Source: a virus (taxonomy: Duplodnaviria; Heunggongvirae; Uroviricota; Caudoviricetes). From it: DNA of 16,173 nt. Under the pieces are notes generated by a model. That model did not search any database. It was given only the letters and a program-made list of their open reading frames with translations, and was not told the origin of the DNA. Below, piece after piece: positions 9,648 to 14,216 of this stretch (position 1 is its first letter; each line of letters begins with the position of its first letter). The stretch lies in the IMG/VR virus record IMGVR_UViG_640753024_000004, positions 1 through 16,173 of that record; one strand, written 5' to 3'. A program made the position numbers and the translations under genes.

Positions 9648-10697
9648 CAATGTAAAATTACAGGTATTGCTCAGGGCTGTTGACCAGGCATCACGCCCGT
9701 TTAAATCCATCCGTACAGCGAGCAAATCGCTGTCGGGGGATATCCGGGAAACACAAAAATCACTGCGCGAGCTGAACGGTCAGACATCCCGTATTGAGGG
9801 ATTTCGCAAGACCAGTGCACAGCTCGCCGTGACTGGTCATGCACTTGAAAAGGCTCGGCAGGAAGCAGAAGCCCTTGCCACACAGTTTAAAAACACCGAA
9901 CGTCCGACCCGTGCTCAGGCGAAAGTGCTGGAATCAGCAAAGCGAGCGGCGGAGGACTTACAGGCGAAATATAACCGCCTGACGGATTCCGTTAAACGCC
10001 AGCAGCGGGAACTGGCCGCTGTGGGAATTAATACCCGCAATCTTGCACATGATGAGCAGGGACTGAAAAACCGTATCAGTGAAACCACCGCACAGCTTAA
10101 CCGGCAGCGCGACGCGCTGGCGCGTGTCAGTGCGCAACAGGCAAAACTTAACGCAGTCAAACAGCGTTATCAGGCCGGAAAGGAACTGGCCGGAAATATG
10201 GCCTCAGTAGGCGCTGCCGGTGTGGGGATTGCGGCGGCGGGAACGATGACCGGAGTTAAGTTGCTGATGCCCGGTTATGAGTTTGCGCAGAAAAACTCAG
10301 AATTGCAGGCCGTGCTCGGAGTGGCAAAAGACTCCGCCGAAATGACCGCACTACGCAAACAGGCGCGCCAGCTCGGCGACAATACCGCCGCCTCGGCGGA
10401 TGATGCGGCCGGTGCACAGATAATCATCGCGAAAGCGGGTGGAGATGCTGCGGCTATTCAGGCGGCAACGCCGGTCACGCTGAATATGGCACTGGCGAAT
10501 CAGCGGTCGATGGAAGAAAACGCGCAACTGTTGCTGGGGACTAAGGCATCCTTTCAACTGTCAAATGATGATGTCAGCCATGTGGGCGACGTGTTGTCGG
10601 CAACGATGAATAAGTCGGCGGCTGATTTTCAGGGGCTCAGTGATGCACTGACTTACCTCGGGCCGGTTGCGAGGACGGCGGGTGTAAGTCTTGAGCA
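9640..10697 (+). pseudogene. T: Tail tape-measure gene T, 5' part, interrupted by an IS21-family insertion
   Basis: Coiled-coil-like, Ala/Gln-rich N-terminal tape-measure sequence. The frame runs into the IS left end and stops at 10723-10725 inside the IS inverted repeat. Confidence 0.8.
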
Positions 10698-10750
10698 TGT
10701 CAGCGCCAATGATATAAGACAGTAATTCACCATTTGGATTGTCCGCTCCA
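10698..10750. repeat. IS21-family left terminal inverted repeat region
   Basis: Matches the right end in inverted orientation: terminal TGTCA(G/A)CGCCAA, then CCATTTGGATTGTCCGCT against CCATTTTTAATGTCCGCT. Confidence 0.6.
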
Positions 10751-10798
10751 CCCAACATGTTGTTTCCTTAAGGTTCCTACACCACAAAGGGAACACTC

Positions 10799-11971
10799 AT
10801 GCTGAGCAGAGAGGATTTTTACATGATAAAGCAAATGCGCCAGCAAGGTGCGTATATTGTTGATATTGCCACTCAGGTTGGTTGCTCTGAGCGGACCGTC
10901 AGACGGTACCTGAAATACCCGGAACCTCCGGCCAGAAAAACACGCCACAAAATGGCCAAACTCAAGCCGTTCATGGACTATATAGATATGCGTCTGGCTG
11001 AGAACGTCTGGAACGGCGAGGTCATCCTGGCGGAAATCAAAGCGATGGGTTATACCGGTGGCCGTTCCATGTTGCGCTACTACATCCAGCCCAAACGTAA
11101 GATGCGGCCATCGAAGAAAACGGTTCGCTTCGAAACTCAGCCCGGTTACCAGCTACAGCATGACTGGGGAGAAGTTGAGGCTGAGGTTGCCGGGCAACGA
11201 TGCAGGGTTAACTTCGCGGTTAATACGCTGGGGTTCTCACGTCGCTTCCATGTCTTCGCGGCACCAAAGCAGGATGCTGAACATACCTATGAGTCACTGG
11301 TCCGCGCCTTTCGCTACTTCGGCGGTAGCGTGAAAACCGTGCTGGTCGATAACCAGAAAGCCGCAGTGCTGAAAAATAACAACGGGAAGGTGGTGTTCAA
11401 CTCCGGGTTCCTGCTGCTGGCCGATCACTATGGCTTCCTGCCACGGGCCTGCCGTCCACGAAGGGCCAGAACCAAAGGTAAGGTTGAACGGATGGTGAAA
11501 TACCTCAAGGAAAACTTCTTCATCCGGTACCGCCGGTTCGACAGCTTCGCCCATGTTAACCAGCTACTGGAGCAGTGGATGGCTGACGTTGCTGACAGGC
11601 GAGAACTTCGCCAGTTCAGGCAGACACCGGAACAGCGCTTCACGCAGGAACAGGAGCATCTGCATCCGCTGCCGGGTACGGACTTCGATACCAGCTATTT
11701 CGATATCCGTCATGTCTCCTGGGATGGCTATATCGAGGTTGGCGGGAACCGTTACAGCGTACCGGAAAGCCTGTGTGGCCAGCCGGTATCAATACGGATC
11801 TCGCTGGATGATGAACTACGGATCTACAGTAATGAGCAACAGGTAGCATCGCACCGTCTCTGTTCGGCTGCATCCAGCTGGCAAACCGTGCCGGAGCATC
11901 ACGCCCCACTCTGGCAGCAGGTCAGTCAGGTGGAACACAGACCGTTGAGTACGTATGAGGAGCTGTTGTGA
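10799..11971 (+). CDS. istA: IS21-family transposase IstA, 390 aa
   Basis: N-terminal HTH region ([24 protein letters not shown]...), the typical length, and an ATGA overlap with istB. Confidence 0.9.
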
Positions 11972-12765
11972 TGCATGAACTGGAGACACTGCTGAGTCGT
12001 CTTAAAATGGAACATCTGGGCTACCACGTTGAAAGCCTGCTGGAGCAGGCGGCCAAAAAAGAACTGAACTACCGCGAGTTCCTGTGCATGGCGTTGCAGC
12101 AGGAATGGAACGGGAGGCATCAGCGCGGTATGGAGTCCCGGCTGAAACAGGCCCGCTTCCCGTGGGTCAAAACGCTGGAGCAGTTCGACTTCGGCTTCCA
12201 GCCAGGTATCGATCGTAAGGTCGTCCGTGAGCTGGCCGGGCTGGCGTTCGTGGAGCGTAGCGAGAACGTGATCCTGCTGGGTCCGCCCGGTGTGGGTAAA
12301 ACGCACCTGGCAGTCGCTCTCGGGGTAAAAGCGGCGGACGCTGGTCATCGGGTACTGTTCATGCCACTGGATAAGCTGATCGCCACACTCATGAAGGCAA
12401 AACAGGAAAACCGGCTGGAAAAACAGCTACAGCAGCTTGGTTATGCCCGGGTACTGATACTGGATGAGATAGGCTATCTGCCGATGACCCGCGAGGAAGC
12501 CAGTCTGTTCTTCCGGTTGCTGAACCGTCGATATGAAAAAGCGAGCATCGTGCTGACATCAAATAAAGGGTTCGCCGACTGGGGAGAGATGTTCGGCGAT
12601 AACGTGCTGGCAACGGCAATCCTGGATCGACTGCTCCACCACTCAACCACACTGAACATCAAAGGAGAAAGCTACCGGTTAAAGGAAAAACGCAAAGCGG
12701 GAGTGCTGGCAAAAAACGCCACGCCAATCAGTGATGATGAAATGGCGGAAAGCGGACAACATTAA
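11968..12765 (+). CDS. istB: IS21-family helper ATPase IstB, 265 aa
   Basis: Walker [10 protein letters not shown], Walker [10 protein letters not shown], and the typical IstB length. Confidence 0.9.
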
Positions 12766-12767
12766 TG

Positions 12768-12822
12768 ACCAATAGCGGACATTAAAAATGGCGAAAAACG
12801 GCCAATAATCTTGGCGTTGACA
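12768..12822. repeat. IS21-family right terminal inverted repeat region (two AGCGGACA motifs, ends ...GTTGACA)
   Basis: Inverted match to the left end, seen directly. Confidence 0.6.
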
Positions 12823-14216
12823 AGCAGGCAGCGGCCATGACAGGTGTGCTGCATGACAATAACATCAGGGGGTCAATGGCGGGTACTGGTAGTAGTGCCG
12901 TTGTCACCCGATTACAGGCTCCGACAGGGAAAGCATGGGAAGCACTCAAAGAGCTTGGCGTTAAAACCTCGGACAAAAAGGGAAATATGCGTCCGTTGTT
13001 CACCATTCTGAAAGAGATTCAGGCCAGCTTTGATAAACACAAGCTGGGAACGTCTCAGAAGGGGGAATACCTTAAAACCATTTTTGGTGAGGAAGCCCTG
13101 AAATCAGCGAACGTTTTACTGGCAGCGGCTGCAAGCGGAAAACTGGATAAGCTGACCGCCACGCTGAAAGCCTCGGACGGTAAAACGGAAGAGCTGGTTA
13201 AAATCATGCAGGATAACCTCGGCGGTGACTTTAAGGAGTTTCAGTCTGCTTATGAGGCGGTGGGGACTGACCTGTTTGACCAACAGGAAGGCGCACTGCG
13301 TAATCTCACGCAGACGGCCACAAAGTATGTGTTAAAACTCGACGGCTGGATCCAGAAAAACAAATCACTGGCGTCAACCATCGGCCTTATTGTCGGTGGC
13401 GCACTGGCGCTTATTGGCATCATCGGTGCAATTGGTCTTGTAGCCTGGCCGGTTATCACCGGCATTAATGCCATCATCGCGGCAGCAGGCGCAATGGGGG
13501 CAATCTTCACGACGGTTGGCAGTGCTGTTATGACGGCCATCGGGGCGATTAGCTGGCCGATTGTGGCTGTGGTGGCCGCCATTGTCGCCGGGGCGTTGCT
13601 TATCCGTAAATACTGGGAGCCTGTCAGCGCATTCTTTGGTGGTGTGGTTGAAGGGCTGAAAGCAGCATTTGCGCCGGTGGGGGAGCTGTTCTCGCCACTG
13701 AAACCGGTGTTTGACTGGCTGGGCGAAAAGTTACAGGCCGCGTGGCAGTGGTTTAAAAACCTGATTGCCCCGGTCAAAGCCACCCAGGACACCCTGAACC
13801 GTTGCCGTGATACTGGCGTCATGTTCGGGCAGGCACTGGCTGACGCGCTGATGCTGCCGCTTAATGCGTTCAACAAACTGCGCAGCGGTATTGACTGGGT
13901 ACTGGAAAAACTCGGCGTCATCAACAAAGAGTCTGACGCACTTGACCAGACTGCCGCCAGAACTCATGCCGCCACGTATGGCACAGGTGGTTATATTCCG
14001 GCGACCAGCTCTTATGCAGGCTATCAGGCTTACCAGCCGGTCACGGCACCGGCTGGTCGCTCTTATGTGGACCAGAGTAAAAACGAATATCACATCAACC
14101 TGACGGGCGGTACTGCGCCGGGGACACAGCTTGACCGCCAGTTACAGGATGTGCTCGAAAAATACGAGCGGGATAAACGTGCGCGCGCCCGTGCCAGCAT
14201 GATGCATGACGGTTAA
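12823..14216 (+). pseudogene. T: Tail tape-measure gene T, 3' part
   Basis: Removing the IS and one AGCA copy rejoins the frame as ...GVSLEQAAAMTGVLHDNNIRGSMAGTG..., giving about 816 codons, close to the length I recall for P2 gpT. Contains a hydrophobic Gly/Ala-rich central segment typical of tape-measure proteins. Confidence 0.8.

Follow-up and report, generated by a model that had tools for sequence, protein, structure and literature searches.

The 16,173-nucleotide (nt) stretch of DNA analyzed here, IMG/VR record IMGVR_UViG_640753024_000004 (the window), holds a P2-like prophage whose tape-measure gene T is interrupted by an insertion sequence (IS) of the IS21 family. The window is identical to Escherichia coli E24377A, an enterotoxigenic E. 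coli (ETEC) strain (CP000800.1:1000694-1016866; 0 mismatches over 16,173 nt), and the prophage is integrated between pflA and pflB. We conclude, with a probability of roughly 0.96, that a complete copy of an already known element, ISEc62, transposed into codon 353 of T in this prophage, which separately lost 19.2 kb. The element and its immediate surroundings are delimited by the following features.

10698 to 12822, plus strand (same orientation as gene T): ISEc62 (IS21 family), a complete 2,125-bp copy, 99.9% identical to annotated copies.
10694 to 10697, no strand: left copy of the target-site duplication AGCA; the empty site of E. coli EP91A has a single AGCA.
12823 to 12826, no strand: right copy of the target-site duplication AGCA, the duplicated sequence at the right flank of the IS.
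10698 to 10709, plus strand: terminal repeat of the left end (L1), TGTCAGCGCCAA, beginning with TG, placed by the inverted-repeat alignment.
12811 to 12822, minus strand: right-end terminal repeat (R1), which reads TGTCAACGCCAA as the reverse complement; TTGACA makes up the final six bases of the IS, which terminates in CA.
10726 to 10747, plus strand: inner repeat of the left end (L2-like), TTCACCATTTGGATTGTCCGCT, which pairs with 12774-12795 at 18 of 22 positions (82%) and is conserved in IS21 ends.
12774 to 12795, minus strand: inner repeat of the right end (R2-like), the inverted partner of 10726-10747.
12740 to 12759, plus strand: extra direct copy of the right-end repeat, AAATGGCGGAAAGCGGACAA, 85% identical to 12786-12805.

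At the left junction, the host sequence reads CTTG and then AGCA before the IS start TGTCAGCGCCAATG (in a longer reading, GTAAGTCTTG-AGCA-TGTCAGCGCCAATGATA), and at the right junction the IS end CTTGGCGTTGACA is followed by AGCA and GGCAGC (longer reading, AATCTTGGCGTTGACA-AGCA-GGCAGCGGCC). A duplication of 5 bp is excluded because GAGCA differs from AGCAG. The element begins with TG and ends with CA, and its terminal inverted repeats, TGTCAGCGCCAA and the reverse-complemented TGTCAACGCCAA, match at 11 of 12 positions. When up to 2 mismatches are allowed, the terminal 12-mer occurs just twice in the 16-kb window, at the two IS ends and in inverted orientation. Candidate IstA-binding blocks, L1/L2 on the left and R1/R2 on the right, appear to give the element the multirepeat ends that the IS21 family requires, an architecture described previously for the family (PMC10122671). 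We took target-site duplications of 4 to 8 bp as characteristic of IS21-family elements, and AGCA lies within that range. The boundaries are the same in 10 full copies, and 8 of 10 other full ISEc62 copies are flanked by 4-bp duplications (sequences seen: ACAG, CATG, CAAG, TTGC, AAAT, CTGC, ACGA, and, for the copy in the window, AGCA); 4 bp is the normal duplication size for ISEc62. Chance can be ruled out as the source of these boundaries because the full-length unit recurs with the same ends and the empty site has a single AGCA. The alignments and the empty site thereby bear out what an initial annotation, made from the DNA alone, had proposed for the size of the element, its inverted-repeat ends, and the 4-bp duplication.

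End to end, the 2,125-bp element is 99.9% identical to copies whose two genes RefSeq labels "IS21-like element ISEc62 family transposase" and "IS21-like element helper ATPase IstB." On this evidence it is very probably ISEc62 itself; the DNA of the two coding regions is identical, so that IstA equals WP_000952425.1 (in the E. coli 10035776-3 locus, L003) and IstB equals WP_000544809.1. Location and one synonymous polymorphic site are what distinguish ISEc62 copies elsewhere from the copy in the window. The element carries two genes.

10799 to 11971, plus strand: istA, encoding a DDE transposase of 390 amino acids (aa) (Pfam rve and Mu-transpos_C_2; NCBIfam NF033546).
11971 to 12765, plus strand: istB, encoding an AAA+ helper ATPase of 264 aa (Pfam IstB_IS21, 1e-87; NCBIfam NF038214).

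The istB ATG overlaps the istA TGA by 1 nt, and both frames are open, giving the istA-then-istB arrangement that defines the family. IstA scored 282.8 bits against NF033546 (cutoff, 160) and IstB scored 296.3 bits against NF038214 (cutoff, 200). In an end-to-end alignment (E value, 7e-84), the IstA triad D122/D184/E230 lies opposite D124/D187/E233 of IS5376 IstA (PDB 8b4h), residues that are essential by mutation in that protein (PMC10122671). Codon 9 of istA encodes a second Met, which fits the reported "cointegrase," an isoform of IstA without the first 8 residues (PMC10122671). In IstB, which has structural matches to PDB 8q3w and 5bq5, Walker A (GPPGVGKT, residues 104 to 111) and Walker B (LILDE, residues 162 to 166, with D165/E166) align to IS5376 IstB, for which a Walker B mutant, E167Q, has been described (PMC11208146). 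Both proteins are the consensus proteins of the 10 full copies; at the DNA level, the window copy differs from the consensus of those copies at a single position, IS nt 1861, where the change is synonymous and the polymorphism is common to other copies. The scores, the DDE triad, and the Walker motifs agree with the earlier assignment to the IS21 family, and the two genes are intact, as had been claimed.

The two parts of the interrupted gene are as follows.

9640 to 10697, plus strand: 5' part of gene T, codons 1 to 352 and 2 nt of codon 353 (PF10145 profile positions 1 to 119).
12827 to 14216, plus strand: 3' part of gene T, starting with the third base of codon 353 and running through the stop codon (PF10145 profile positions 121 to 201).

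Insertion occurred between the second and third bases of codon 353, and the PF10145 domain is split exactly there. The 5' frame runs into the IS and stops at 10725, yielding 361 aa that comprise 352 native residues followed by HVSANDIRQ, encoded by the IS end, and end in SLEHVSANDIRQ; in the 3' part, the longest free-standing open reading frame (ORF) starts at the ATG at 12837 and encodes 459 aa. As it stands, T is a disrupted gene. Joining 9640-10697 to 12827-14216, which removes the IS and one AGCA in silico, gives 2,448 nt with 815 codons plus a stop and no internal stop, the continuous frame of about 816 codons that the initial annotation had predicted. Among the offsets tested, the frame stays open only when 1, 4, or 7 nt are removed after the IS. 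The restored T (815 aa) matches TIGR01760 at 2.8e-100 over residues 199 to 548, a range that spans the insertion point, and only after this removal does the locus present a P2-type T, namely, a single ORF with the core domain located between E/E+E' and U.

The uninterrupted allele is represented in other genomes. Over 1,000 bp, the restored empty site is 100% identical to that of E. coli EP91A (NZ_CP149815.1), which has a single AGCA, and it is at least 99.7% identical to six further genomes, in each of which the region is annotated as one tape-measure gene. Over the whole gene, the restored T differs from that of EP91A at 2 of 2,448 nt and at 2 aa. The Peduovirus phages pro483 and P24C9 carry T genes that are 97 to 99% identical at the DNA level around the insertion site. 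We also considered a hybrid promoter reading outward from the terminal TTGACA of the IS and rejected it, as the flank offers no acceptable -10 element at 16 to 18 nt downstream.

The second lesion in the prophage is a large internal deletion, which, together with what remains of the neighboring genes, is placed as follows.

9401 to 9402, no strand: junction left by an internal deletion of 19,208 bp as measured against EP91A, with TG microhomology of 2 bp, from EP91A mapping.
8849 to 9402, minus strand: truncated portal gene Q, of which the 3' ~554 nt are left (PF04860 profile positions 117 to 266; EP91A annotation).
9403 to 9647, plus strand: remnant of the tail chaperone genes E/E+E', with the first ~181 nt of E gone (EP91A mapping, with which the CP000800.1 gene calls agree).
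14231 to 15873, plus strand: tail genes U (14231-14710) and D (14710-15873) (PHROG tail proteins; Pfam GpU and GPD).

EP91A carries a prophage of ~33 kb at the same pflA/pflB site, with the full P2 gene set and 99.4 to 100% identity to the window. Positions 1 to 9402 of the window (int-C-cox-B-A-cargo-Q') correspond to 3104-12505 of the EP91A locus (L004, reverse complement), and the window from 9401 corresponds to 31714 onward. The junction joins GGAGCCGGGTG directly to ACCGAGCAGG, and the parental sequences overlap by 2 bp (TG). The deleted segment extends from inside the portal gene Q to inside the tail gene E and takes in the rest of the portal, terminase, scaffold, capsid, head completion, lysis, baseplate, tail fiber, sheath, and tube genes, as well as ISEc12, which is specific to EP91A. 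A GpE-family ORF at 9492-9647 was kept, and the late region is reduced to a truncated portal gene and a truncated E, followed by T with its IS, U, D, and ogr. As in P2, the genes are ordered int-C-cox-B-A...E-T-U-D-ogr; relative to P2-like prophages, the one in the window differs in having T interrupted and 19.2 kb of morphogenesis and lysis genes gone.

The description of the backbone as free of deletions in the initial annotation thus does not stand, given a 19,208-bp deletion whose junction, at 9401/9402, lies 1,295 bp upstream of the IS. An IS-mediated origin of this deletion was considered and rejected: its endpoints are not at an IS end, the nearer one is 1,295 bp from the left end of the IS, and the junction has 2-bp microhomology. 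This 2-bp overlap points to illegitimate recombination and not to a deletion mediated by an IS end. From the organization of P2 genes, the sheath-tube-E-T-U-D operon would be without its upstream part and hence would have lost its native promoter region. Because 19,208 bp of essential genes were lost, the prophage is dead regardless of the IS. Judged by its sequence, it is a defective, non-inducible remnant in which T is a stranded relic, and the intactness of T is uninformative on the relative age of the insertion and of prophage degradation.

Other rearrangements were seen in related prophages. The EP91A prophage itself carries another IS21-family element, ISEc12, in the tail-fiber assembly region (L004 11311-13613); P2-like prophages at the pflA/pflB locus are repeatedly hit by IS elements. 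In E. coli W13-16 (H98; NZ_CP080235.1:6250-6705), portal and gpE sequences lie within ~450 bp of each other, and this region matched 63% of the junction probe in 2 pieces; it may be a related prophage in which a different internal deletion arose independently.

The finished CP000800.1 chromosome shares both the left junction of the IS in T and the deletion junction with two independent Logan short-read assemblies (SRR9425412 and SRR24529635). The Logan contigs break ~45 nt inside the IS, the usual sign that those genomes contain more than one copy of a repeat. Searches of 5,426 complete E. coli genomes, IMG/VR, and INPHARED returned no instance of the same IS junction or deletion junction; E24377A was identified as the source by an exact look-up of the 361-aa fusion protein. 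No observation speaks against the interpretation of an ISEc62 insertion and a separate deletion; the name ISEc62 is taken from the RefSeq annotation of 99.9%-identical copies. No complete E. coli genome in our collection has the insertion alone or the deletion alone at this locus, and the two possible orders of events are nearly equally likely.

We give even odds to the possibility that the deletion came first and that ISEc62 then landed in an already dead remnant, in a gene free of selection and with no phenotypic effect. The lesions co-occur in all three assemblies that have the IS junction in T, and many ISEc62 copies elsewhere lie in prophage genes (lysozyme, capsid, the Q antiterminator, and two lambdoid tape-measure genes), a distribution that fits neutral sites. 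However, no genome was found in which the deletion junction accompanies an intact T, and the flanks are too close to those of EP91A for either event to be dated. The reverse order, in which the ISEc62 insertion into T was what first inactivated a functional prophage, with the 19-kb deletion occurring after the prophage had become useless, we rate at somewhat under even odds. The data are equally compatible with it, and the restored T ORF shows no other lesion, yet no genome was found in which the IS junction occurs and the deletion does not (of a query spanning the junction, no record covers 80% or more), and the deletion, 1,295 bp from the left end of the IS, is not adjacent to it and so is not an IS-mediated adjacent deletion. 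That a repeated IS was wrongly placed in T during assembly is scarcely credible, for although ISEc62 is multicopy in many genomes and short-read contigs break ~45 nt inside it, the IS is flanked by a perfect 4-bp duplication, as real transposition predicts, and the finished CP000800.1 chromosome and the two independent Logan assemblies all show the same left junction.

Under the favored interpretation, transposition of ISEc62 into T with a separate deletion, the course of events can be sketched from work on IS21 and IS5376 (PMC10122671 and PMC11208146). An IstA tetramer would synapse both ends through the L1/L2 and R1/R2 repeats and expose 3' CA-OH ends. ATP-bound IstB decamers would bend the target DNA, with little sequence preference, and then recruit and activate IstA. 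Strand transfers staggered by 4 bp and followed by gap repair would generate the AGCA duplication. The insertion leaves T as a fusion stub of 361 aa and a 3' part without a promoter. In a separate event, an illegitimate deletion of 19.2 kb, with its 2-bp microhomology, removed the segment from inside Q to inside E. Since the remnant prophage is non-inducible, the IS insertion would be selectively neutral for the prophage.

The closest comparison outside ISEc62 itself is the IS21 copy annotated in phage fiAA91-ss (NC_022750.1), which is ~86% identical to ISEc62 at the DNA level and is a distinct named IS. The proteins are 93% (IstA) and 94% (IstB) identical, and both IstA proteins have 390 aa. 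The two elements share the istA-istB order with a 1-nt overlap and TG...CA ends with terminal and inner repeats, and the ends can be aligned over ~50 nt. By these alignments, ISEc62 is closely related to IS21 proper, for which duplications are 4 bp and occasionally 5 bp long. In fiAA91-ss, a Cdt-V-converting P2-like phage, the IS21 copy (L058 5001-7132; NC_022750.1:24451-26582) lies between C and B, where cox would be. Whereas the ISEc62 copy in the window is in T, that insertion occupies the cox region, and the P2-like phage that carries it is still viable; fiAA91-ss is an earlier example of a Peduovirus genome with an IS21-type element.

IS5376 is a more distant homologue, with E values of ~1e-84 for IstA and ~1e-66 for IstB. 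Its IstA and IstB (PDB 8b4h, 8q4d, 8q3w, and 5bq5) have the same domain layout, DDE triad, and Walker motifs as those of ISEc62; IstA aligns end to end, and IstB aligns over residues 10 to 242 of 264. IS5376 duplications are 5 bp (PMC11208146), compared with 4 bp for ISEc62.

Tape-measure genes of another type also harbor ISEc62: copies were found in lambdoid (non-P2) tape-measure genes of E. coli F719 (L002 3001-5125) and E. coli 10035776-3 (L003 3001-5125), with duplications ACAG and CATG, respectively. The targets in the window and in F719 have a 10-nt string, CAGGCAGCGG, in common with a 1-bp offset, and this string loosely resembles the left end of ISEc62. A target-site motif was sought in 63 half-sites pooled across E. 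coli, metagenome, and viral loci (33 on the left and 30 on the right) and rejected, the maximum being 0.19 bit per position; we treat the shared CAGGCAGCGG as coincidence because the pooled half-sites show no consensus. The similarity of the flanks to the IS end was no higher than that of shuffled sequences (5.83 versus 5.67, with a shuffle maximum of 6.10), and IS21 has been described as lacking strong target specificity (PMC11208146). A cryptic target preference of ISEc62 that makes tape-measure genes recurrent targets is, in our assessment, very unlikely; if real, it would mean sequence- or shape-guided targeting by IstB/IstA beyond the described lack of strong specificity. Long, unselected prophage genes are regarded as simply permissive targets.

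ISEc62 is widespread. Near-full-length copies, some chromosomal and others on plasmids, are present in 863 E. coli records, with at least 99% identity in 117 of them; plasmid records at that identity number 81 and include Klebsiella, Shigella sonnei, and Salmonella plasmids. One genome (H72) has up to 18 places that match ISEc62. In Escherichia sp. MOD1-EC7003 (NZ_PTRE01; L005-L028), the IS is collapsed to a single 2,125-bp contig with a coverage of ~2,968× versus ~110× (an excess of ~27-fold), and 22 distinct contig-end left junctions were found, an apparent burst of ~25 or more ISEc62 copies in one strain.

The copy in the window is structurally intact and probably transposition competent. 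Its consensus proteins and ends, the many distinct sites occupied, and the near-identical copies elsewhere make it plausible that it is still active, as the initial annotation had suggested. A recent insertion is likewise plausible given the perfect duplication, the 2 differences in 2,448 nt between the restored T and that of EP91A, and the one shared synonymous difference in the IS.

Earlier work already covers ISEc62, the mechanism of the family, the E24377A genome, and the insertion of IS elements into P2-like phages (fiAA91-ss). The literature on ISEc62 that we found consists of passing mentions in plasmid papers, and our search found no paper that combines E24377A with IS21. As another instance of an IS landing neutrally in a prophage under decay, here in an ETEC reference strain sequenced long ago, the insertion matters little. 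Its practical value lies in annotation: pseudogene flags belong on both T fragments, on the truncated portal gene, and on the truncated E, and the region is best handled as a defective P2-like remnant and should not be mistaken for an inducible prophage disabled by one IS. The locus also provides a clean worked example of the boundaries and 4-bp duplication of ISEc62.

Elsewhere in the window, a two-gene, AT-rich cargo module (6998-8745) lies between the replication gene A and the portal gene Q, with a G+C content (GC) of 33 to 40% compared with 52 to 58% for the backbone. It encodes a 433-aa AAA_15/AAA_21 ATPase and a 145-aa protein without a Pfam match. The best match of the module is the PADLOC candidate defense system PDC-M29 (A, 1.9e-31; B, 1.6e-4, which is weak), with AriA-like similarity, and the module is probably antiphage cargo. 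The 1.1 kb downstream of gene A (5885-6997) has no ORF of >81 aa and a GC down to ~37%, and this stretch is kept in EP91A with 3 single-nucleotide polymorphisms. An Rfam scan of the window gave no match at gathering thresholds, with only subthreshold noise in this ORF-free stretch; those subthreshold matches, at ~6089-6253, fall on both strands, which suggests a hairpin.

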